From a virus: a DNA stretch of 64,000 nucleotides. This document shows, piece after piece, positions 1-64,000 of the stretch; the first letter of the stretch is position 1, and each line of letters starts with the position of its first letter. The notes under the pieces are model-generated. The model ran no database searches, had not been told where the DNA came from, and saw nothing but the letters and a program-made list of their open reading frames with translations. The stretch lies in IMG/VR virus record IMGVR_UViG_3300034095_000254, one strand, 5' to 3'. The position numbers and the translations under genes were made by a program.

Positions 1-346
1 TACCCAGTATCAATTTATCAATAATAAATGGAGTAAATATCTTTTCAGATAGGTAACCAAGCATCCAGTTATAGTAAACATCTTCCATGGCACGACCATT
101 GTTTCTCATACGAGGAAGAATATTGTGATTCTTAATCTTCATAAAAGTATCAATGATGTCTTGGTCTATGTTACCTTCATATGGAACAGATAACTGCTGA
201 TTGATTTTAGTAAAGATATTATTCAAACGAGAATTCTGTTGTTGAAGCACAGACCAGTTTGGTTCTTTAATATCTTTTGCAGAGAGATACTTTTGAAACT
301 CATCCTTGCGAGTGAATCCCATTGCCTTACGATATTCTTTACTCAT
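1..346 (-). CDS. Partial CDS (runs off the window); unknown protein, possibly a restriction-endonuclease-like nuclease
   Basis: Not in the ORF track. ATG at 346 overlaps the TGA of the GNAT gene (ATGA). Open frame MSKEYRKAMGFTRKDEFQKYLSAKDI...LPRMRNNGRAMEDVYYNWMLGYLSEKIF to the window edge. The nuclease resemblance is from memory only. Confidence 0.55.
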   Translation of the reverse strand, partial: MSKEYRKAMGFTRKDEFQKYLSAKDIKEPNWSVLQQQNSRLNNIFTKINQQLSVPYEGNIDQDIIDTFMKIKNHNILPRMRNNGRAMEDVYYNWMLGYLSEKIFTPFIIDKLILG

Positions 347-984
347 ACTAAAAACTCTTCTAACGAGGGTTGTTCAAGTAGTGCGTCTCTTAACCATGCC
401 TTACCAACTGCATTAATTGCTGCTTGGCTCTTTGCTCTTTTCTTATCACCCCACTTGTATGCTTCCAAACCCTCAGCACGGAATTGATCTCTGGCTTTGT
501 ATGGTGGTAGTGCTTGTAGTGGATTCACGATGGCAAAGTCACGATAAGCAATCTGCTCTGCTCTAGTTGGAAACAGTGGTTGGTCTGAACGAAGTGAACC
601 TGTTGGATCAACTGCCCACCAAATCAAACCATTCTTGTAGTGCCATGTAACTGAAGAAGGAGTGCAAGACATCTTTAGTCGAGTCATCTTTCTTTCTTTA
701 ACTGCATAATCAATCCATGCATCCCAACACTTTGATGCATAACCCTTACCTTCATTTCCTTCAAGTGTAACAATCTCGTAGAGATTACTGTAACCATCTC
801 GATTAAATGTGGCAAAGATTAAACAAACAACATCACCATTCACTTCAAGAGCCATTGGTGGTGCTTTGTCATAGTTATGAAAGCGATACCATAATGAATG
901 TGCAGCCGATAAGAATTTTGTATTCTTACCAGCTGGACTAGTTTTAATTAACTCTTCAACTCTCGTTGAATTAACAAAGTTCAT
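343..984 (-). CDS. GNAT-family acetyltransferase with putative C-terminal sliding-clamp-binding peptide
   Basis: GNAT motif A-like IVTLEGNEGKGYAS. Likely start MNFVNS at 984, overlapping the upstream stop. Ends PSLEEFLV*. Confidence 0.7.
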   Translation of the reverse strand: MNFVNSTRVEELIKTSPAGKNTKFLSAAHSLWYRFHNYDKAPPMALEVNGDVVCLIFATFNRDGYSNLYEIVTLEGNEGKGYASKCWDAWIDYAVKERKMTRLKMSCTPSSVTWHYKNGLIWWAVDPTGSLRSDQPLFPTRAEQIAYRDFAIVNPLQALPPYKARDQFRAEGLEAYKWGDKKRAKSQAAINAVGKAWLRDALLEQPSLEEFLV

Positions 985-1663
985 ATTGTAAGTCCACCGC
1001 ATCCTCAATAACTTCTTTTTCAATTGTCATTGCAAGTTGGTCATCAAATGTAATGTAATGGTTCATCAAAGTGTTAATAGGGAATCCTGGAACTTCTGCT
1101 CGTTTTGGTACATCAGCAGTAGAAGTAATTATACACCCATTTGATATAGAAGTCAAGTATAATGGTCGTTTACCATTGCGATAGAATCTAATAACTTTAT
1201 CAACATGCAACTCTATAACGGCAAGACTAGAATCTTTCCAACGAATCAATGGGCTGATGCAATCTTCTGCTGTGTGTAAGATTAGTTCTGTATCGTTTTT
1301 AGTTTCGCAATCATAACCATATAACTCTTTCCACTTCTCAGGTAACTCTTGAGTGATAACACCATTGTGGACTACGGAAAGATTCTCATTGGCAATTGGT
1401 TGATTGAATTCTAAGTCACTGGTGCTGTAACGACAGTGACCAATCATATAAAGACTTCCATCTTCATTGACATAACTTGGAAAGTTAAATGGAAATTCAT
1501 CGGCAGGAACTGGTCGCTTCTCAGTGATAATCTTTCCATGTTTAACATAGGAGATTCCAGTGGCATGCATTCCTCGAATCTTGGACTCAAGGAACACACG
1601 ATGAAGCATTAAGAAATCCTCGGCACGAGGTTCTTTAATAATTGCGCCAATGACTGAACACAT
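971..1663 (-). CDS. Stand-alone class II (Ntn) glutamine amidotransferase domain protein
   Basis: N-terminal Met-Cys nucleophile, RGxxATG, GHCRYST, HNGVI and NDTE motifs. No synthetase domain (230 aa). Confidence 0.85.
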   Translation of the reverse strand: MCSVIGAIIKEPRAEDFLMLHRVFLESKIRGMHATGISYVKHGKIITEKRPVPADEFPFNFPSYVNEDGSLYMIGHCRYSTSDLEFNQPIANENLSVVHNGVITQELPEKWKELYGYDCETKNDTELILHTAEDCISPLIRWKDSSLAVIELHVDKVIRFYRNGKRPLYLTSISNGCIITSTADVPKRAEVPGFPINTLMNHYITFDDQLAMTIEKEVIEDAVDLQYELC

Positions 1664-3024
1664 TAAAAGAATCCTTCAAGTGAGTTTGCCTTTTGTGACT
1701 CTGGATGATACTTCAACAGAGTTTCTTTACCAAGTTTTGATTCAAGGTATTCATACCACTCTTCAGACTCCCACATTGCAGAACTCACACCATTCCAAAG
1801 ATGTCGTTGTGAACCATCTTCATACTTTTGGTCTGGATGTTCTTTGTTAAGTCTTCGTTGTTCAACAAATTCATAACGACAATCTTCATACTCTTTAGAT
1901 CCCAACTCAGCCATCTTCTCACGGAAGTAAACAACCAATGAGATTCTCTCTGCTTCTTCGTCCATCAATTCAATTTGAGTATTGCCATGCATCACTTCAT
2001 GATTGTTAATGAGTAGCAAATCTCCAGGTCTTGGATTGACAGCAACACGATACTCTGGTGCTACAAGATAGCATCCTTTGTAGTTACCATTATTACTCAA
2101 TGTCAATAGATTGGATAGACCTTCAGTGAAGTCACCAGCATCGAAGTGACATGCAGTTCTGAAAGATTTATTTACAGTGACAGTAGTAAATGGAGTTCCA
2201 GGAACTAAGAAAGCAGGATCCAGTTTCTTTGCAGCTTCCATCTGATTGTTATATCGCCATGGCAACAAGTCTTTGAAACCTTGTGCAAGTTGCTGAAGGA
2301 ATGGATATGCCATGGCAAACTTTGCTGGTTCACGAGCAGTGTAAGATGTCGCACGACCATAAGGAATGCGAGGATAACGATCGAACCATCCAGCAATACC
2401 AGACATTACACCATTGGCATAGGTAGTTGCGCAGACATACGCTTTCTCTACTCGTCTTGCCTCAATGACCATTTCAGATGCATCTAGTTTACGAACTTTC
2501 TCCACCCACTCGTTGAACACAAATCCATCTTTCTTGACTGCTTGAATACCCCAAACATTATTTCGTGTGGATGGTTTGTCAGTCTTACCTTCGTGCTTGG
2601 CTTTAATAACATCAATTGGATCTCCATCCAACGATGCTTTAGGATCCAAGAAGTATTCAATAATTTCTGATTCGTATTCAGTGACCCATTCACGATTACC
2701 CAACTTCTCTGCTCTTGGACCTGCAGCCATACCTCTGTTCTGAGTTTCAGTTGCTGCTTCACGGAGACCAATATACGCTTGGTCTTGTTGTTCTTTACTG
2801 AAGTAGTTCTTACGGAACTTCAAAACAATTCGTCTTTCGTCTGCGCCTGTGTCGCATGATGAACATTCTTGGTCGCAATCTGCTTGTGTGGCTAGATCGC
2901 AATTGGCTGGCATGTAAACATCACAGTCCTCTTCAATGAGAAAATCATAATGTGACTCATCAGGGAATTGCCCCAACATATGAGTCATATCAAGTTTCTC
3001 TTTTGCTACAATTACTTTTACCAT
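1663..3024 (-). CDS. TET/JBP-family 2OG-Fe(II) dioxygenase (5-methylpyrimidine oxygenase)
   Basis: TVTVNKSFRTACHFDAGD (HxD), GDLLLINNHEVMHGNT (distal His) and RISLVVYFREKM (2OG-binding Arg) match the TET/JBP core. Ends NSLEGFF*. Confidence 0.85.
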   Translation of the reverse strand: MVKVIVAKEKLDMTHMLGQFPDESHYDFLIEEDCDVYMPANCDLATQADCDQECSSCDTGADERRIVLKFRKNYFSKEQQDQAYIGLREAATETQNRGMAAGPRAEKLGNREWVTEYESEIIEYFLDPKASLDGDPIDVIKAKHEGKTDKPSTRNNVWGIQAVKKDGFVFNEWVEKVRKLDASEMVIEARRVEKAYVCATTYANGVMSGIAGWFDRYPRIPYGRATSYTAREPAKFAMAYPFLQQLAQGFKDLLPWRYNNQMEAAKKLDPAFLVPGTPFTTVTVNKSFRTACHFDAGDFTEGLSNLLTLSNNGNYKGCYLVAPEYRVAVNPRPGDLLLINNHEVMHGNTQIELMDEEAERISLVVYFREKMAELGSKEYEDCRYEFVEQRRLNKEHPDQKYEDGSQRHLWNGVSSAMWESEEWYEYLESKLGKETLLKYHPESQKANSLEGFF

Positions 3025-13490: not shown

Positions 13491-13697
13491 TTAGATGCAA
13501 CTCTTACGAGGGAATCCAGTTGCAAATCCAGAAGTCCCAGTGGATGCAGATCTTGTAACTTTACCAGACATGCGTTGCTTTGGTGCTTTGCGTGGTTTTA
13601 CAACTTCAATGCTTCCACCTTTTTTCAAAAACAACTTTACTTGTTTTTCGGTTTCAGCACGCAACTCAGATTTTGATTTAAAGAATGTATTCATCAT
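13491..13697 (-). CDS. Small basic hypothetical protein
   Basis: GAGG RBS; Lys/Arg-rich. Confidence 0.7.
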   Translation of the reverse strand: MMNTFFKSKSELRAETEKQVKLFLKKGGSIEVVKPRKAPKQRMSGKVTRSASTGTSGFATGFPRKSCI

Positions 13698-13712
13698 ATA
13701 TTTTCCTCTCAA

Positions 13713-14856: not shown

Positions 14857-14948
14857 TTTACTTTACCAGCTTTGTAAGTTCTGAATGCTTGGATACCCTC
14901 AGCAATACCAAGGATGATATTCTTACAATTGTTCAGCAGCTTTTTCAT
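14853..14948 (-). CDS. 31-aa mini-protein MKKLLNNCKNIILGIAEGIQAFRTYKAGKVK
   Basis: GAGG RBS inside the hsp20 3' end; ATGA overlap with the next ORF. Confidence 0.5.
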   Translation of the reverse strand: MKKLLNNCKNIILGIAEGIQAFRTYKAGKVK

Positions 14949-15429
14949 ATGCGTCCTCTTGTAAGAATGACTTCTGTCCCTTAGTCTTCACTGGAACTTT
15001 CTTTGCTTTCTGTGTTTCTGGGATTAATTGATCGAGAGCGATCTTTAATACACCATTGAACAACTCAGCATCTTTAACTTCATACTGATCACCGATTGCC
15101 CATGCACGAGTAAACGCACGCATGCCAATACCTTTGAACAGATAATCAGTGTCCTCTGGTTCTGTTGACTCAGAGTTACCCTTAACGATTAGTTTACCAC
15201 CATCAATGGTAATGTCGATTTCGTTTTGTGCGAAACCTGCCACAGCGATTTCAATCGTGTAGGTATTACCGTTCTTGCGAACATTGAATGGAGGATAGTT
15301 AGGGATGTTTTTGGTTAGTTCGTCATGAAGATTTTGCATCTTCGAGAACTGGTCATCGAAACCTACGAACACCTTATCAAAGTCTTTGAAGTGTTCACCA
15401 AAAAATGTGGGGATGAATTGTCGTACCAT
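14923..15429 (-). CDS. Small heat-shock protein (Hsp20/IbpA-like)
   Basis: NYPPFNV, IEIAVAGF, RAFTRAW, NGVLKI alpha-crystallin motifs. Confidence 0.95.
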   Translation of the reverse strand: MVRQFIPTFFGEHFKDFDKVFVGFDDQFSKMQNLHDELTKNIPNYPPFNVRKNGNTYTIEIAVAGFAQNEIDITIDGGKLIVKGNSESTEPEDTDYLFKGIGMRAFTRAWAIGDQYEVKDAELFNGVLKIALDQLIPETQKAKKVPVKTKGQKSFLQEDAYEKAAEQL

Positions 15430-15570
15430 TGTGTTTCTCCTATTAAGCGAGTTTAATTAAAATTGATACCCCGAAGGCATATCATTAATGCTGGTTACAA
15501 TTCCAGCGACATCGTGCGTCATGCCTGCTTTATACGATTCGTAACTTAGTGGTCCTAAGGTGAATTCTTA
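15430..15570 (-). promoter_or_regulatory. Structured 5' leader of hsp20 ending in a ROSE-like RNA thermometer hairpin
   Basis: Successive hairpins CTTAG/CTAAG, TACG/CGTA, GACG/TGTC, GCTGG/CCAGC and GATATGCC-TTCG-GGGTATC, then CTCGCT-taat-AGGAG (U(U/C)GCU motif facing the SD). Confidence 0.6.
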
Positions 15571-15642
15571 TTACTTATTCATTACATACATTGTAACTTC
15601 AAAGCCAAATCTCATTTCTGTTGCTGATGGTTTTGTCCACAT
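15571..15642 (-). CDS. pqqA: PQQ precursor peptide PqqA (23 aa)
   Basis: Not in track. AGGAG RBS then MWTKPSATEMRFGFEVTMYVMNK*, with the canonical W-x-K-P...GFEVTxY (E-x3-Y) signature. Confidence 0.95.
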   Translation of the reverse strand: MWTKPSATEMRFGFEVTMYVMNK

Positions 15643-15740
15643 AATAATCTCCTAATTGTTTGTCCATTGTTGGACTTATTACTTAGGATTGAGAGGACAA
15701 AAACCAGCTAATGAAAATCATTAGTTATACCTAATGGTAT

Positions 15741-15926
15741 TTATGCTTTTTCTGCAGGTGTTTCAGCTGGTGCATTTTTTGCAGCTTCTGCTTCTAATGC
15801 TACAACCTGTGGTTCACCTTGCTGTTTAATTTTGTTAATAACTGCAACTACTTCCTCAAATGGGTGCTTACCCAATACACGAAGAATCATATTACAATCG
15901 TCTATACTCAATTCAAGTTTGATCAT
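15741..15926 (-). CDS. Hypothetical protein
   Basis: ATGA overlap with regA. Confidence 0.75.
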   Translation of the reverse strand: MIKLELSIDDCNMILRVLGKHPFEEVVAVINKIKQQGEPQVVALEAEAAKNAPAETPAEKA

Positions 15927-16342
15927 TTTGCTTTTTTTCCTATGTTATATTTGGGAACAAGTTCCCACTCATTTTTCTCTTTAAAAGAGACTACTTTAAT
16001 TTGAGACAAAGATGCCTTATTGTCTGCTTGCGTATTATTTAGAATCTTTAATAGATCCCAATCTTGTAGCAAACCAGCAATAGCATTTCTGCGCTCGATA
16101 TCGCCACTCGTGATATTAGATTCTTTACCATCAAGAGCAAACAATTCTTTGAAATGCACTATGAAGTATCTACCTTGCTTATGTAAAATGTGGCAAGATT
16201 GATACAACTTGTTTTCTTTTCTGGAAGCGATCCCGATGCGGGTAAGTGTCTCACGAACCTTTAGAAAGTTATCTGGTTCTGGCAGTATCACTTCAAGCAT
16301 GGACTCAGCTGTCCAGTCGTAATAAATCAATTCGACAGTCAT
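15923..16342 (-). CDS. regA: Translational repressor RegA
   Basis: FLKVRETLTRIGIAS, LYQSCHILHKQGRYFIVHFKELFALDG. Confidence 0.97.
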   Translation of the reverse strand: MTVELIYYDWTAESMLEVILPEPDNFLKVRETLTRIGIASRKENKLYQSCHILHKQGRYFIVHFKELFALDGKESNITSGDIERRNAIAGLLQDWDLLKILNNTQADNKASLSQIKVVSFKEKNEWELVPKYNIGKKAK

Positions 16343-18956: not shown

Positions 18957-19280
18957 TTATTTTGAGTATTTAACATCGTGTTCATACAAGAACATTAGGC
19001 AACACATTGCATGCGCCAAGTGATTCTTGCCAGTCTCGGGATCGTTTTGCTCTCCCTCTTTCCATGCCCAAAGATGTCTTTGCATTGCGTCAAAGTATCT
19101 TCGTTTTGAGTCTGGAACATTCTTCCAATTATCTGGTTCGTATTTCTCCGCACCAAATGTTAGAATTTCTACAGTCGCTTTTAATGCGAGTGGTGGAAGT
19201 AAACCATATTGTAGTTTACCTCCATCGAATTTACGACCACCAGTCGTAGCTGTTTGTGATAATTTAACTTTATCGTTCAA
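18957..19280 (-). CDS. dATP/dGTP diphosphohydrolase (DUF5664-type)
   Basis: GRKFDGGK...LLPP, GAEKYEPDNW, AMQRHL, DPETGKNHLAHAMCC; TTG start after GAGGTG. Confidence 0.85.
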   Translation of the reverse strand: MNDKVKLSQTATTGGRKFDGGKLQYGLLPPLALKATVEILTFGAEKYEPDNWKNVPDSKRRYFDAMQRHLWAWKEGEQNDPETGKNHLAHAMCCLMFLYEHDVKYSK

Positions 19281-20531: not shown

Positions 20532-21698
20532 TTAGAAGGGAATCTCGTCTTCCACCTTTGGAGTCTCTACAGTTTCTGTAGCAACTACTTCAGGTTGTGG
20601 GTTTGCAACTTTATCGAACAAGTCGATGAATGCAGCTTTGGTTGCTGCATCGAAACGATTGCAACACAACTCAACTGCTTTCTGCTGATTCTTAAAAATT
20701 GCATAGGCACGAACAATGTGGATCATACGACGAGTCGTAATAGTTTCATCCACACCACCATCCTCGAAAGTGCGACGAATTGCTTCAGCCCACTTCACGA
20801 GTGTCTCTGCAAACTCGGCATCTAAACAGCCATAAGTTTCCATGAGATTCTTAATAATCTTAACTTCGATTTTTGCAGTTGGGTATTCCTGTTCGAATGT
20901 AACAGCGAATCGCTCCAAGAATGCTTCGTTCAAAACATTGGTACCAATATAGCGACCATCGTCTGAACCCTTACCCTTAGTGTTTGCAGTTGCAAAGATG
21001 TTGAATCCTTCAGCTGGAACAATCATCTCATTCTTGAGTTTGAAGTAGTATGGTTTACCCTCAAGGATCGGTTGCAAACAAAGCAGAGTGTTTGCTGAAC
21101 CTGCATCGATCTCATCAAGCAACAACGCAGTACCGCTACGCATTGCAATCAATACTGGACCTTCTACGATCTCCACATTACCATCTTCCAAAGTCTTGGA
21201 ACCGATAAGTTGTTCTTCGTCAGTCATCATGTTAAGGTTAACACGAATCAATGGACGCTTGTGCTTGGCACAAATCTGTTCGACCATCGTTGACTTGCCA
21301 TTCCCAGTTGGACCAGAAATGTAGGCTGGGTAAAAGATACCAGACTTGATAATGTTTTCCAAGTCATTGTAGTTACCGAATGGTACAAAGTTGCTATCTT
21401 TCTTTGGAATCAACGCTGAGATATCAGAGTAGTCCACCTTAAAGGATTCTTGTTTCACAGGTTGTGCTTTCAATGCAGTGTTTCCAATAATAGGGGTTGC
21501 ACCACCTTCAATAGCGTACAAACCACGACCAACTTTATTCTTCATGAGCCACAAAGGATACTTCTCTGTCTTCATTGCTTCCATAACATCCAAAAGTTCT
21601 GGACGACTAACAGTGCCTTTGGTGGCAGTGTCAGGGTACATTTCTTTCATCTTCAATTCAAACGATTCACGGAACTGGGTATCAGTTTTTGCCATCAC
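20532..21698 (-). CDS. CobS/MoxR-like AAA+ ATPase
   Basis: GPTGNGKS, LLDEID, ATANTKGKG, NEAFLERF. Confidence 0.9.
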   Translation of the reverse strand: MMAKTDTQFRESFELKMKEMYPDTATKGTVSRPELLDVMEAMKTEKYPLWLMKNKVGRGLYAIEGGATPIIGNTALKAQPVKQESFKVDYSDISALIPKKDSNFVPFGNYNDLENIIKSGIFYPAYISGPTGNGKSTMVEQICAKHKRPLIRVNLNMMTDEEQLIGSKTLEDGNVEIVEGPVLIAMRSGTALLLDEIDAGSANTLLCLQPILEGKPYYFKLKNEMIVPAEGFNIFATANTKGKGSDDGRYIGTNVLNEAFLERFAVTFEQEYPTAKIEVKIIKNLMETYGCLDAEFAETLVKWAEAIRRTFEDGGVDETITTRRMIHIVRAYAIFKNQQKAVELCCNRFDAATKAAFIDLFDKVANPQPEVVATETVETPKVEDEIPF

Positions 21699-21743
21699 AT
21701 TTTCTCCATAATAAAATTACACTTTCACAAATTCATAACAACT

Positions 21744-21772
21744 ATTATACTGTAATTAACAATAAAAGTCAA
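21744..21772 (-). promoter_or_regulatory. Sigma70-like early promoter
   Basis: TTGACT-N17-TATAAT; CCCT-N9-AGGG at 21784-21800. Confidence 0.8.
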
Positions 21773-21802
21773 CACTTATTTAACCCTGTGGTTGTAAGGG
21801 TC

Positions 21803-23986
21803 TTAGGCTACTAATCCAACGAATCGATTGAGTAGGACTCGGGAAGTCTTCTTTACATTCAAGAATTTACCGAAATTCTTTGCAATCGCTCTTGCATTTG
21901 CATCGGCTTTTACATCCATCTCACCCTCTTGGATCTTGGTTGAAGACTGTGGAATCAAGAACAACTCATCACGACCAGTGTTTTTCACTGACGCAAAACC
22001 TTGTGCTCTGAATTCTTTCTTCCAGCTATCAATCAATGCGTAGATGTCTCCATTAAAATCAGGTAAGTTTGAGTTTGCAACACAACGCAAATCACGACCA
22101 CGATTCTGACAGATGTGGAATCCGACCGAAGAAATATTGTAACGATCTTTGATCATTCTAAGAATCATCTCAGTTTGATTACCAGACAGGCGACCAATTT
22201 CATAAGTCTTTTGTGTGGCTTCATCTTTGATAAAGTTCTTGATTTTAATTCGTTTGTAAACACCATCAACGATCTCTGTACGAGAGTCATCGAAACGACC
22301 AGATGTGTAGGTATTCAATGAACCACCTTCACCATCGGTAAGAGTAATGAAAGTTGTTTTCTCGATATTGTTGTTCTTAATAAATGTACCCAAAGTTTTG
22401 TAGCAATATACCAATGCTTCATTCAATGGAGTACCACCAGTATTGTAACCTTCATTCCAATGGAAACGATAGTCAAGAACACGACGAGCCATTGAATTGA
22501 ATTCGCTGGTAGTCATTTTGTTGTTGAAGAATTCTAACAAGTGGAACCTGTCGGCAGAATCAATCAAATTGTTTTCTTCTCGTCGTGCAGATCTCCAAGC
22601 ACGATATGCTTCATGTTCTGCTACAGTTTCAGTTTTCTTGTCGTTATAGTCAGTCGTAAATGCATACACACGATATGGAATCTGAACACGATTACAAAAC
22701 ATAGCCAAGTTGATAACTTGTTTCATGGTATCTTTCAATACTTCATTCATCGAACCAGACCAGTCAACAAGAAGAATCATGCCGTGATTTTTACCTTGTG
22801 GTAGAGAAGTCACACGCTTGAACAAATCGTCTTGCAGTTTGTATGCATAAACTTTCTTCATGTCCAATGAACCAATCTTTGATACCATTGCACGCTTGTG
22901 AAGTTGAGCAGACTTTTTCATCTCGAATTCTTTCACGAGATAATTCACAGTACGAATAGATTCGGTTTTGAATTGCACAAAATCTGAATCCTCTGCATTG
23001 TGGAAAGCATTTCGTTCTTCATCACTCATATTGCGAGTGCGGTAGTCAATCATGTCTGGACTATCAAGTAACCACTTCTCAGGTGATTTAGTTTCATTAA
23101 GAATTTGTTTGTAACCGATGACTGGATCTTTAAAGTAATCTGTATCAAACTTCCAGTATTTGTATTCGGTAGAATCATCAGCAAGGTCTTCCAATTTGTT
23201 TTGGAATGCTCTTTCTGTTTTTGATTCTAAATCGTCACCAATTTCTGACTTGTCGTCATTTTGTAGTGTAGATGATTTATTATTCTTGGCTGGTTTTAGA
23301 TCTTCGTCTTCACCATCTTGTTCTTCAAAGTCTTCTTCGCCATCGATGTCAAAGTCACCATAGTTTGGATCGTCGTCTTCATCACCTTCATCTTCTTCTT
23401 GTTCTTGGAATTTGGCATTCTGTTTACGCTCTTCGGCTACTTGTTTAGAGTATGCATAAATCTCATTTGCCAGTGCAACAATTTCATCGACTGTTTCTGT
23501 TCGTTCAGCACGATTCACAAATGCCTTTTCATCAGGTGTGAATGTTACACCACACTGGAATCCTGCTTTAAAGTAAAGATTGATTTTGTCAATGAGTAGC
23601 AGTTCGTCAAAGTCTTGAACTTGTTTCGTGCCAAAGAAGTCACGATCATTGAGTTGCTTATATCCTTCGTTCATGCGTTTGCGCAATCCTGGATATTTGC
23701 GTTTGATAAGTTTCTCGATACGAACATCTTCTAGGACATTCATGTATGAGTGTAACTTAGGAGTTTCCCTTAGTGGTGCAAGATAGTCATCGTTGGTGTA
23801 AAGGGCATGACCCACTTCGTGACCAATCAACATATCTTCAATTTCGGGAGTCATATCTTTCCACATCGGAAGAGTAAGAATACGACTCTTGATGTCAAAA
23901 GATGCAGTGCGAGTTCTGGCACGAATAACTGAAAGGTTTTCAGTTGCCAGCAGTCTTGCGGATAGATCAGATGCTTTCATTTCCAT
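21803..23986 (-). CDS. CobT-like protein: N-terminal HExxH metallopeptidase domain, acidic linker, C-terminal VWA domain
   Basis: HEVGH...NVLEDVRIE; DWSGSM MIDAS, GGTPL, LTDGEG; adjacent to the AAA partner. Confidence 0.88.
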   Translation of the reverse strand: MEMKASDLSARLLATENLSVIRARTRTASFDIKSRILTLPMWKDMTPEIEDMLIGHEVGHALYTNDDYLAPLRETPKLHSYMNVLEDVRIEKLIKRKYPGLRKRMNEGYKQLNDRDFFGTKQVQDFDELLLIDKINLYFKAGFQCGVTFTPDEKAFVNRAERTETVDEIVALANEIYAYSKQVAEERKQNAKFQEQEEDEGDEDDDPNYGDFDIDGEEDFEEQDGEDEDLKPAKNNKSSTLQNDDKSEIGDDLESKTERAFQNKLEDLADDSTEYKYWKFDTDYFKDPVIGYKQILNETKSPEKWLLDSPDMIDYRTRNMSDEERNAFHNAEDSDFVQFKTESIRTVNYLVKEFEMKKSAQLHKRAMVSKIGSLDMKKVYAYKLQDDLFKRVTSLPQGKNHGMILLVDWSGSMNEVLKDTMKQVINLAMFCNRVQIPYRVYAFTTDYNDKKTETVAEHEAYRAWRSARREENNLIDSADRFHLLEFFNNKMTTSEFNSMARRVLDYRFHWNEGYNTGGTPLNEALVYCYKTLGTFIKNNNIEKTTFITLTDGEGGSLNTYTSGRFDDSRTEIVDGVYKRIKIKNFIKDEATQKTYEIGRLSGNQTEMILRMIKDRYNISSVGFHICQNRGRDLRCVANSNLPDFNGDIYALIDSWKKEFRAQGFASVKNTGRDELFLIPQSSTKIQEGEMDVKADANARAIAKNFGKFLNVKKTSRVLLNRFVGLVA

Positions 23987-23993
23987 AATATAT

Positions 23994-24167
23994 TTATTCC
24001 CCAAACGCTAATTCAAATTCGAATTCAGTCAACAGTGCTTCAATCTTAGCACGATTAGCCAATTTTACAGGAAGGATGCCTTCAAATACACATTCTTCTT
24101 CGATACCATAACCATGACACAAACATGCTAACTCAAAGTCATCAAAACCAGCCCATTGATTTTCCAT
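23994..24167 (-). CDS. Small hypothetical early protein
   Basis: GGAG RBS, MENQW... Confidence 0.65.
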   Translation of the reverse strand: MENQWAGFDDFELACLCHGYGIEEECVFEGILPVKLANRAKIEALLTEFEFELAFGE

Positions 24168-34361: not shown

Positions 34362-34376
34362 TTTGGATTTCCTTAT

Positions 34377-61067: not shown

Positions 61068-61761
61068 CATAAGCATTGACCGCATCTTGAACCAAATCAT
61101 AAACTAACTCATCTCTAAGATCTGCAAAGAAACGAATAGTCAATCGAACCCCATCCTCATCAAAATTAAACACATTGTGATAATGGTAAGCATTAAAGAC
61201 AACTGGAGTTCCAGGGATATAGGTAGACTCATATACCTTTGGGTTATTAATCCCAAAATCCATACCTCTATACTCTTCATTTGCAATCACAGAATATTTA
61301 AACTTATTCGGCATAGTTATAGGTAACTGAATAATCATCATCGTGTCAGGATGTGATAACTCAAATACATGGTTATGCCACCCCATCACAGTTCCTGGAT
61401 GAATCTCTTCAATCCTTGCCAATGCTTTACCACCACCCAGTTTTTCAACTATGTCATAGGTGTATGGGAGATATTCAGACAAACCAGTTTTTTGGAAGTG
61501 TCCCCAGATTCTTTCTAACTCACCTGGACCAGCACCCTCTAAACGATCGCAGAAAATCTCACCATTGTAACTAAACAAAGATAGATTGTTCCACTTACTT
61601 TTCTCGTGGCCATGATTCTCCTGCATTGTTGCAGCATAAGGCATCAATGGAAATGGACACTCACCGATTTCTTGTTCAATCCGTGCAGCATCATAAGTAA
61701 AATTCAACGGTAGATGAGGAATTCTATTTACTTGTTCAACTAACTTTTCTATATTTCTCAT
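61048..61761 (-). CDS. AspH-like cupin/non-haem iron oxygenase, paralogue 1
   Basis: LARIE, GWHNH, FNAYHYHNVFN, RLTIRF. Confidence 0.7.
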   Translation of the reverse strand: MRNIEKLVEQVNRIPHLPLNFTYDAARIEQEIGECPFPLMPYAATMQENHGHEKSKWNNLSLFSYNGEIFCDRLEGAGPGELERIWGHFQKTGLSEYLPYTYDIVEKLGGGKALARIEEIHPGTVMGWHNHVFELSHPDTMMIIQLPITMPNKFKYSVIANEEYRGMDFGINNPKVYESTYIPGTPVVFNAYHYHNVFNFDEDGVRLTIRFFADLRDELVYDLVQDAVNAYDGEYIG

Positions 61762-63640
61762 TAATAAAGTTTTCGTAATATGTTCTTATCTGGTAGGTTT
61801 TATCGTACTTTGGAGAGATCGAATCTCTATATTTATCCAGTGAATCTTTAAACTGTTTAATAATATCATCTGGAACATCAAGTCCCAAGTCTTCACTAAC
61901 AGAACATAAAAACTCAATGTATTCTTGTTCAAATACATAAACGCAAGATTTGTATATGTAGGAAAAATCCACAGATATACCAGTGAAGGGTAAGTTAAAT
62001 TGTTTGTAATCTACAACTTCATTTCTATTGCCATCCATTAGATACTGCATCTGGTCGTTTAAGTTTTTCATTGCCAAAACATAATCGTTGGTAGATGGAG
62101 AAACTATCTTCTCATAAATCTTTCTAAAGATTAGCGAAGGTGTTTTTAACTTACCATTTTCCATATTATGTTTTACAATTAAGTCTGTAAATCCTATCAT
62201 GGAAACATTTTCAAGAATCCAATAATTCATGAAGAAAAATTCAGTAAAGTCTTTTCTTGTAAACCCATTTGCTTCTACCACAAACTCTACATCAGAAATA
62301 AAATTTGGATCAGCAGATATATGGTAATCACCAAAGGTATTGACATCATCGAATGCATAACTATTCATTCTTGATTTACCAATACAGATTTTTTCTGTTT
62401 TGATATTATGTTGTTTAATATAGCTGGGAGAGTAAGCAGGAGAGTCTGGTAAAAATAACCAAAGATATCTCTCTAAATTGTAACCATACTCATACTGAAT
62501 ATCAACCTCAGCATAAAAGTCGTCTCTGGTATATCCAGGTAATCCCATCATAAACTCAAAGTCAGAACGAATACCATATGTATCAAAAAGATACTGAGCA
62601 AACTCAAAATCTTTCTCACGAGGAATATCGGTTCGTTTGATATTCTTGAGGACTTCGTTATTTAAAGTTTGCAAACTAAGTTTGTATCGTTCAACTACTT
62701 TGGCTCTAGCAAGTGGCTCGATAGTTGCCCATCGTCTTTCTTGTTTAGACTTAGTCATACCATATATTTCTACATGGTTTGGTAAACCTGAGTATCCTTT
62801 AATTGTTTCAATATATTTGGAAACATCCTCATCTTCCAGATATATTCCGTAGTTTGCATCAAGGATTTGAATCTGCTCAATACCAATCTGTGGTATCCAA
62901 TCTAAATCTTCTTTGATCATATCCAAAGGTTTACGGATAACCTTACCACCGATCCCACCACCCCACTCGCAGAACACACATTGGTATGGGCAACCACGAG
63001 TCAACTCAATTGGCATAACCAGTGGGACATTTCTTTCCATGGCAATATTTTTACATTCAAACAGAATGTCTTCATTACCAGAAATTAAACTTGAGGGGAA
63101 GTCGAAGTCAATTTTATTTCTAGTTTTACCACGACCAGTTTTATAAACTGCAAAAGAAACTTCTTTCCAATTAATATCACCTTCTACAGATTGGTCAAGA
63201 ATGTCAGTAATAAACCACTCTCCATAACTTGTTGGTTCGCAGATAGCGTCTACAAATTTATGTTTAATAAACCAATCAAGATTATTGTAGGTGATATTAA
63301 GATGTGGTCCACCAAGTAGAATAATACGATTTGGATTTCGTTTCTTCAATTCTTTAGCCACAGCCATAATAGCCATATGACTCCAAAGATAACTGGAGAA
63401 TGCATAAATCTCTGAGTCTTGTTTATCGTAGTAATCTACAATTTGTTCAAATGACCACCCTTCTAAATTAAGGATTGGTTTTTCCCAAATAACTCTATCT
63501 GGATATTTACCATGTTTCGTGTAGTAGTTCTTAAAGTTCAACCAATTGATTGGCAACCTTTGAATTGGAACACGAAGGTCAATATTAAGAAACGAGATTC
63601 TTATGGATTTTTTGAGTTGCTTCAACATAATCTGTTTCAC
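61736..63640 (-). CDS. Cobalamin-binding-domain (class B) radical SAM enzyme
   Basis: N-terminal B12-binding-like FSSYLWS...LLGGPH; ELTRGCPYQCVFCEW (CxxxCxxC); DANYG, SLQT, GLPG. Confidence 0.88.
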   Translation of the reverse strand: MKQIMLKQLKKSIRISFLNIDLRVPIQRLPINWLNFKNYYTKHGKYPDRVIWEKPILNLEGWSFEQIVDYYDKQDSEIYAFSSYLWSHMAIMAVAKELKKRNPNRIILLGGPHLNITYNNLDWFIKHKFVDAICEPTSYGEWFITDILDQSVEGDINWKEVSFAVYKTGRGKTRNKIDFDFPSSLISGNEDILFECKNIAMERNVPLVMPIELTRGCPYQCVFCEWGGGIGGKVIRKPLDMIKEDLDWIPQIGIEQIQILDANYGIYLEDEDVSKYIETIKGYSGLPNHVEIYGMTKSKQERRWATIEPLARAKVVERYKLSLQTLNNEVLKNIKRTDIPREKDFEFAQYLFDTYGIRSDFEFMMGLPGYTRDDFYAEVDIQYEYGYNLERYLWLFLPDSPAYSPSYIKQHNIKTEKICIGKSRMNSYAFDDVNTFGDYHISADPNFISDVEFVVEANGFTRKDFTEFFFMNYWILENVSMIGFTDLIVKHNMENGKLKTPSLIFRKIYEKIVSPSTNDYVLAMKNLNDQMQYLMDGNRNEVVDYKQFNLPFTGISVDFSYIYKSCVYVFEQEYIEFLCSVSEDLGLDVPDDIIKQFKDSLDKYRDSISPKYDKTYQIRTYYENFINEKYRKVS

Positions 63641-64000
63641 TGTTTATTTTAATAATTCTTGGAGCCAACTGTTTCATATGAACACAGTGCTCTTCAACCA
63701 TATCATGGTGTTTTAAATCTTTAATTGTTTTCTTACACCCATTACAAATTGCAAACATTGGGCAACCAATACATTCATCCTTTAACGAATACAACTCTGG
63801 AGCATTTTGTAGTGGTGTAATAAAGCCACCTTCTTTAACTTCCTTTACAAAGTTAATAGGGTATTCTTTATCATCACCCATCGCTCCACAAGAATAGTAA
63901 TCACCCTCTGGATTTAACGCTCTGATATGATCATCGCAGTTTCTTGCCTGAGGACAAACATTGGCAATATTGTTCAGACGAGTCATCATCTGTTTAGTAT
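63585..64000 (-). CDS. Partial radical SAM protein, C-terminal SPASM domain
   Basis: C-x5-C...NPEGDYYSC...CIGCPMFAICNGC...C SPASM Cys pattern; frame stays open to the window edge. Confidence 0.8.
   Translation of the reverse strand, partial: TKQMMTRLNNIANVCPQARNCDDHIRALNPEGDYYSCGAMGDDKEYPINFVKEVKEGGFITPLQNAPELYSLKDECIGCPMFAICNGCKKTIKDLKHHDMVEEHCVHMKQLAPRIIKINSETDYVEATQKIHKNLVS

Follow-up and report, generated by a model that had tools for sequence, protein, structure and literature searches.

Pyrroloquinoline quinone (PQQ) is made from PqqA, a ribosomally produced precursor peptide in which a Glu and a Tyr residue become the cofactor. In lakes and coastal seas, members of the Methylophilaceae (OM43, LD28/Methylopumilus, and Methylotenera) are major methanol oxidizers, and they need PQQ for their energy metabolism. 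The closest described viral systems are uncultured T4-like phages from Lake Baikal (population VP_266), assigned to Methylophilaceae hosts, in which PqqA was reported and read as an auxiliary gene for PQQ-dependent methanol oxidation (Coutinho et al. 2020, Microbiome 8:163; PMC7678222). The DNA analyzed here, a stretch of 64,000 nucleotides from IMG/VR virus record IMGVR_UViG_3300034095_000254 (hereafter, the window), likewise stems from an uncultured, T4-like, Methylophilaceae-assigned phage with a PqqA precursor gene. The Baikal populations were additionally reported to carry methanol dehydrogenase, radical SAM proteins, and SAM-cycle genes, whereas neither the window nor five of its relatives has xoxF; the GC content of the window (35 to 42%, mostly 38 to 39%) also differs from the 35% quoted for the Baikal phages. 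As viral pqqA was published in 2020, the window copy is a further example of it rather than a discovery. Our additions to that report are incremental: the boundaries of the pqqA cassette, purifying selection on the gene, allele exchange that is discordant with the flanking DNA, restriction to phages of methylotrophs in a collection of ∼50,000 phage records, and multicopy dosage of the gene in the hosts.

The phage gene also resembles the orphan pqqA genes on Methylophilaceae chromosomes, with which it shares its length, 22 of 23 residues, and the spacing of its ribosome binding site (RBS). These chromosomal genes are stand-alone units not linked to pqqBCDE, the majority with a terminator hairpin behind them. 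The phage copy differs from them by a serine at position 6, by a nucleotide identity of at most 65/72 among the matches listed, and by a phage-specific 5′ leader. Cultured Methylophilales phages (Venkman, MEP301, MEP401/402, P19250A, and Melnitz) encode PqqA at 77 to 100% peptide identity but in other neighborhoods. A search of the literature outside subscription journals turned up no paper that notes pqqA in any cultured phage of OM43 or LD28, and the paper describing Melnitz refers to PQQ as a medium supplement only. Finally, cyanophage psbA (encoding D1) offers a functional analogy only: the phage carries a continually resupplied component of energy metabolism and takes the rest from its host. 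The two genes have no sequence or structural relation, and the benefit of psbA is experimentally supported, whereas that of pqqA is a prediction.

All genes of the window lie on the minus strand, and together they identify it as a T4-like myophage. Functions in replication and recombination are represented by gp43, gp44/62/45, RegA, UvsX, UvsW, UvsY, gp46/47, and ligase, and structure and packaging by gp23 (460 bits), gp20 (595 bits), gp18, gp17, gp15, scaffold, and prohead protease. With these T4-like core genes around pqqA, a host-type metabolic gene is found in a bona fide phage genome. Among cultured phages, the capsid protein best matches those of Melnitz, which infects OM43 (62%), and of the pelagiphage HTVC008M (61.5%). 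Neither tRNA genes nor CRISPR evidence was found in the window, and a search of its whole length against Rfam at gathering thresholds gave no match. Several other genes deserve mention in their own right. A 107-aa protein (18957-19280, −) has the N-terminal domain of a dATP/dGTP diphosphohydrolase (PF18909, 120 bits), and positions 343-3024 encode a GNAT protein, a glutamine amidotransferase, and a dioxygenase of the Tet/JBP type; together, these hint at nucleotide-pool editing for modified DNA. A 73-aa protein (13491-13712, −) resembles the RNA polymerase-binding domain of SutA but just misses the cutoff (PF20661, 27.4 bits; cutoff, 29.3) and could possibly be a phage modulator of host RNA polymerase. 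At 20532-24004 (−), a CobS/MoxR-like AAA protein of 388 aa precedes a protein of 733 aa that matched no family, an arrangement reminiscent of the CobS/CobT-like proteins that marine T4-like phages commonly encode side by side.

The pqqA gene is a 23-codon open reading frame (ORF) running from ATG to TAA at 15571..15642 (−) and encodes MWTKPSATEMRFGFEVTMYVMNK. An earlier reading of this DNA from its letters alone had proposed a 23-aa ORF with a strong RBS; its translation matches exactly, and a Shine-Dalgarno (SD) motif, AGGAGA, is located at 15648..15653 (−), 5 nt upstream of the ATG. Among the matches listed, 113 of 119 viral pqqA copies are preceded by an SD-like motif, as are 119 of 123 copies from bacteria. 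The sequence-only reading had also identified the peptide as PqqA and suggested a check with a PqqA HMM, which bore the identification out. The Pfam model PF08042 matched the peptide at 43.3 bits (cutoff, 21.1; E value, 3e-11) over model positions 1 to 19 of 19, and the NCBIfam equivalog model TIGR02107 did so at 40 bits (cutoff, 20) over positions 1 to 21 of 21. Both scores are about twice the curated cutoffs, so the ORF is not a chance occurrence. The cross-link residues of the Glu-x3-Tyr motif are Glu15 and Tyr19 (E15-V-T-M-Y19, within the 23 aa). An overlapping 31-codon ORF on the other strand (15560..15655, +) was rejected as the real gene, as the PqqA profile scores support the minus-strand ORF. 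Such an opposite-strand frame has been called by annotators in place of pqqA, as a “hypothetical protein,” in Melnitz (MelnitzEXVC044M_152) and in MW202481 (UOF77531.1). A reading of the locus as an attP remnant was rejected as well, given a lytic T4-like phage and a complete ORF with its RBS.

In the window, pqqA lies between a 61-codon ORF with no assigned function (15741..15926, −) and hsp20 (14923..15429, −). The 61-codon ORF is located downstream of regA, the gene for the T4 translational repressor (15923..16342, −; PF01818, 160.5 bits), and is kept in relatives with and without pqqA. The downstream neighbor encodes an IbpA-like small heat shock protein (PF00011, 57.5 bits) that scores 95.7 bits against the IbpA model, under the cutoff of that model. 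Alignment and blastn comparison with relatives lacking pqqA showed the gene to be part of a cassette, a clean indel of ∼175 to 190 nt at 15571..15745 (−): two such loci, L250 and L251, align with the window on both flanks and lack the DNA corresponding to approximately positions 15571-15745. The right-hand edge of the cassette falls directly after the pqqA stop codon. To survey its presence without reference to pqqA itself, RegA was used as an anchor, which retrieved 80 related viral loci. Of the 43 assessable loci with RegA of at least 78% identity, 15 have the gene at a distance of 110 to 420 nt downstream of regA; it was at the regA site in none of 35 more distant RegA-anchored loci. No group I intron and no split pqqA halves were seen in the RegA-anchored loci. 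Among the matches listed, pqqA occupies three sites in the T4-like set: one follows regA, another lies between hsp20 and gp45, and the third follows gp23. The locus L251 is part of genome G007, which is 174,396 bp long, has terminal repeats, is rated 100% complete, and encodes a RegA 94% identical to that of the window. Neither PqqA nor xoxF was found anywhere in G007; pqqA is therefore an accessory gene, and either G007 has a nonmethylotroph host or the gene is dispensable. In comparisons of the window pqqA with unrelated viral copies and with bacterial copies (the bacterial side being loci L100-L121 only), homology is confined to the RBS region and the ORF, a unit of ∼90 nt.

The part of the cassette upstream of pqqA looks like a terminator-promoter-leader arrangement. 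An AT-rich hairpin (15708-15724) followed by CUGGUUUUU forms a terminator-like element at 15699..15724 (−), which probably ends the upstream operon; a GC-demanding terminator scan did not flag it. A (C/A)TAAGTA box at 15675..15686 (−), ∼40 nt before the ATG, is a candidate promoter element of the cassette; it gave no match to the sigma-70 consensus. The pqqA 5′ leader contains a short hairpin, GUCCA-ACAA-UGGAC, at 15662..15675 (−), kept in the window and in the related loci L248 and L249. By alignment, the trio of U-run hairpin, TAAGTA box, and leader hairpin is common to 8 or 9 of 13 cassette-bearing relatives. A scan for sigma-70 promoters and terminators performed no better than on shuffled sequences and yielded no convincing pqqA promoter. 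A weak candidate, the T4 late-promoter-like ATAAATA at 15738..15744 (−), overlaps the upstream ORF at its stop codon and was rejected as a late promoter for pqqA on account of its absence from L248 and L249. Across the window, ATAAATA occurs at 17 sites, a count within chance; all but 2 of them lie on the coding strand (15/17), and a large number are placed 10 to 30 nt upstream of structural genes (for example, at 34374, 35434, 39599, 49273, 57997, and 60348), a bias and placement that fit T4-type late promoters.

Directly downstream of the cassette is the structured leader of hsp20 (15430..15570, −), whose predicted fold is supported by compensatory changes at 12 of 22 pairs. Across ∼40 related viral loci, these 140 nt between pqqA and hsp20 are conserved above the level of the flanking genes, and four hairpins are predicted. 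The last hairpin pairs CUCGCU with the SD of hsp20, an arrangement resembling that of ROSE-type RNA thermometers. Searching the surroundings of pqqA and the hsp20 leader against Rfam at E values up to 10 gave nothing meaningful and no ROSE family.

Selection on pqqA was gauged from 12 distinct alleles found at the regA site of T4-like relatives. Pooled pS was 0.67 and pN 0.13, corresponding to a dN/dS of ∼0.09, a value somewhat flattered by the allele search pattern, which fixed 7 of the 23 positions (E15 and Y19 included). Synonymous change among the 12 alleles is near saturation: Arg11 is encoded by four different codons, and both codons are equally used for Phe14 and for Tyr19. The residues W2, P5, R11, G13, E15, T17, and Y19 are invariant. 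These patterns point to strong purifying selection on phage pqqA, and it is almost certainly a real gene that selection has kept; if alleles have been repeatedly reimported, the low dN/dS could in part reflect selection in the hosts.

The history of pqqA is not that of its flanks. Compared with the window, L248 is 90 to 97% identical in its flanking nucleotides and only ∼80% identical in pqqA (L248:2868-2936), with six residues changed. For L249, the flanks are 75 to 94% identical and pqqA is identical at 72 of 72 nt (L249:3698-3769). This discordance indicates that alleles have been exchanged among phages, and perhaps also with hosts, over a segment confined to ∼70 to 90 nt. The L248 core, EMRYGFEITMY, has a match in one bacterial genome only. 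Among the matches listed, the nearest bacterial copy is identical to the window pqqA at 65 of 72 nt, and viral copies reach 72 of 72. The exact peptide of the window was present at 11 viral loci (L122-L241) and at no bacterial locus (L002-L121) among those matches, in which Ser6 occurs in 36 of 120 viral and 3 of 127 bacterial copies, a 12-fold viral enrichment in sequences that are not independent. Position 6 of bacterial PqqA may be A, E, T, S, Q, or D.

The distribution of the gene was surveyed by a tblastn search with the peptide against 50,697 phage records, 12 of which gave a match. Venkman encodes an identical peptide (100%; 95% at the DNA level), followed by MW202481, a Manatee Spring virus (96% peptide identity), P19250A and MEP301 (91%), MEP401 and MEP402 (87%), and four Melnitz genomes (77%); the remaining two, doubtful “Acinetobacter phage” metagenome contigs, matched weakly. 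Clear pqqA matches in this collection are thus restricted to 10 records, nine of them from Methylophilales phages and the other from the spring virus. Querying the same 50,697 records with a Pseudomonadales-type PqqA returned the identical 12 records and no Pseudomonas or Klebsiella phage, which indicates that phages of other PQQ producers in that collection lack pqqA. The gene is unannotated in the records of Venkman, MEP301, MEP401, and P19250A.

More than 120 IMG/VR contigs also carry pqqA, in at least four types of neighborhood. When 120 motif-bearing contigs among the matches listed were classed by their neighbors, ∼24 were T4-like, ∼55 resembled Venkman, MEP301, or Manatee Spring virus, 12 resembled P19250A, and 28 resembled none of these. 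In Venkman, MEP301, and MW202481, pqqA is antisense to every neighbor and lies within the erf/exonuclease module; similarly, 36 of the 55 Venkman-like IMG/VR contigs among the matches listed have pqqA flanked on either side by an ORF of the opposite strand. In Melnitz, pqqA precedes tRNA-Leu and gp5, and in P19250A, it ends an operon.

The earlier reading had taken the peptide to be nearly identical to Methylophilaceae PqqA and had placed the host in that family, probably in the vicinity of Methylopumilus, Methylotenera, or OM43. Searching with a degenerate DNA pattern that encodes EMRFGFEVTMY, the peptide core, retrieved >120 stretches of bacterial genomes, nearly all labeled Methylophilaceae or carrying vaguer parent labels. 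The clear outliers among the matches listed are two loci of one Acidovorax metagenome-assembled genome, one Rhodocyclaceae locus, and one Pseudomonadales locus, the latter two with the general ...ANR tail instead of ...VMNK. The near-identity was borne out: with Ser6 in place of Ala6, the window peptide matches 22 of 23 residues of the second commonest Methylophilaceae allele (29 loci among the matches listed). With its core motif found almost only in the Methylophilaceae, PqqA makes the host call good at the family level, and a host within this family is well supported by these peptide matches, with which the capsid match to Melnitz agrees. The ...YVMNK allele type is common to Methylotenera, Methylophilus, “Ca. 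Methylopumilus,” and OM43, so that the host call reaches no further than the family. A search with hsp20 for a host signal returned a single, irrelevant match to a Bartonella plasmid.

Reliance of the phage on host PqqB-E, also suggested from the letters alone, agrees with the gene content on both sides. No pqqB-E, xoxF, or other PQQ-dependent dehydrogenase gene was found among the window ORFs, and the five relatives likewise showed no trace of pqqB-E; there is thus no sign of a coordinated viral module for PQQ and methanol dehydrogenase in the window or in these relatives. On the host side, PqqE scored above its cutoff in four of five Methylophilaceae genomes, the fifth being an incomplete single-cell assembly. 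The genomes of this family carry three to five dispersed pqqA copies, mostly distant from pqqE. Linkage of pqqA to a pqqBCDE operon was not found among the window ORFs, which is not disqualifying, since the majority of host copies are likewise remote from pqqE. Even the streamlined, 1.3-Mb genome of “Ca. Methylopumilus universalis” has three pqqA genes, each >100 kb from pqqE, and such multiplicity argues that precursor dosage matters.

In light of these findings, we consider it likely that the phage gene is functional and supplies the stoichiometrically consumed PQQ precursor, which host enzymes finish so that methanol dehydrogenase is kept supplied. During infection, the 23-residue peptide would be translated from its own strong RBS, host PqqD would bind the N-terminal part of the phage PqqA, and host PqqE would cross-link Glu15 to Tyr19, leaving a host protease, PqqB, and PqqC to complete PQQ. 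One peptide would be spent per PQQ, and host transcription is expected to fail in a T4-type infection; a phage copy would then secure the precursor throughout phage replication, and with it the cofactor of the XoxF-type methanol dehydrogenase. We infer expression of the peptide, its processing by host enzymes, and a benefit to the phage; carriage in unrelated phage types, purifying selection, specificity, the presence of the host pathway, and host gene dosage were counted in favor of the supply of precursor, along with the profile scores, the host assignment, and the Baikal precedent. PQQ is a recycled cofactor, and for this reason the phage may gain little from making more of it during a single latent period. 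Moreover, pqqA appears to be dispensable, being absent from G007 and present at the regA site in only 15 of 43 close relatives.

That patchiness among close relatives, together with a homologous unit of only ∼90 nt, is what would be expected if pqqA were a neutral passenger, picked up from host DNA not long ago and of no use to the phage. Such an origin is hard to reconcile with an ORF and RBS intact in nearly all copies, with a dN/dS of ∼0.09 at saturated synonymous sites and a fixed syntenic position, with independent retention in several unrelated phage lineages, and with the identities to the window gene among the matches listed (bacterial copies at most 65/72 nt, viral copies up to 72/72). 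Neutral carriage is already disfavored by these data, and we regard it as very unlikely. Still less credible, and in our estimate highly improbable, is that the peptide serves as a substrate for radical-SAM/SPASM enzymes of the phage itself, giving a product other than PQQ. The window does contain a B12 radical-SAM protein (61736-63640) and, at its end, a truncated ORF for the SPASM C terminus of another enzyme (63585-63989), but these are ∼46 kb from pqqA and have no PqqE match, and methylophages with genomes of 35 to 44 kb carry pqqA with no annotated radical-SAM gene within 3 to 4 kb on either side.

Two further explanations accept a functional peptide but assign it another effect. In one, the phage peptide acts as a decoy or regulator that forms unproductive complexes with host PqqD or PqqE, or is a competitor of the host's own PqqA, and thereby lowers or retunes PQQ synthesis and SAM use. 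The N-terminal part of the phage peptide does differ from host alleles, as seen in the viral bias for Ser6 (36/120 versus 3/127 among the matches listed) and, for the core, in the near-exclusive EMRYGFEITMY of L248, which matches one bacterial genome only. However, a pure binder would not need the cross-link residues, core, and tail, which are as conserved as the leader, and position 6 varies among bacteria too; we therefore judge interference of this kind unlikely. In the other, PQQ would be made for a purpose outside energy metabolism, for example to be released and to close PqqU-type TonB-dependent receptors, blocking other phages. PQQ is secreted by its producers, and it acts via a PqqU-type receptor against phage IsaakIselin in Escherichia coli (PMC12124388). 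There is no sign here that methylophages use a PQQ receptor, and the energy-related explanation is simpler, as phage pqqA is limited, in the phage records searched, to hosts with a PQQ-dependent central energy enzyme. A nonenergy purpose accordingly seems quite improbable. We assign a similarly slight chance to an extension of it, in which alleles kept and exchanged by phages (Ser6 and that of L248) would reprogram PQQ output beyond energy, for instance through PqqU closure that excludes competitors.

Supply of the PQQ precursor to the host pathway is hence the reading that we favor. At 23 codons, pqqA is missed by gene callers, and public phage records need to be reannotated for it; the gene seems to offer a dependable means of recognizing phages with methylotroph hosts. 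If phage pqqA sustains PQQ, viral infection would be tied to methanol turnover in the Methylophilaceae, much as psbA ties infection to photosynthesis in cyanophages.
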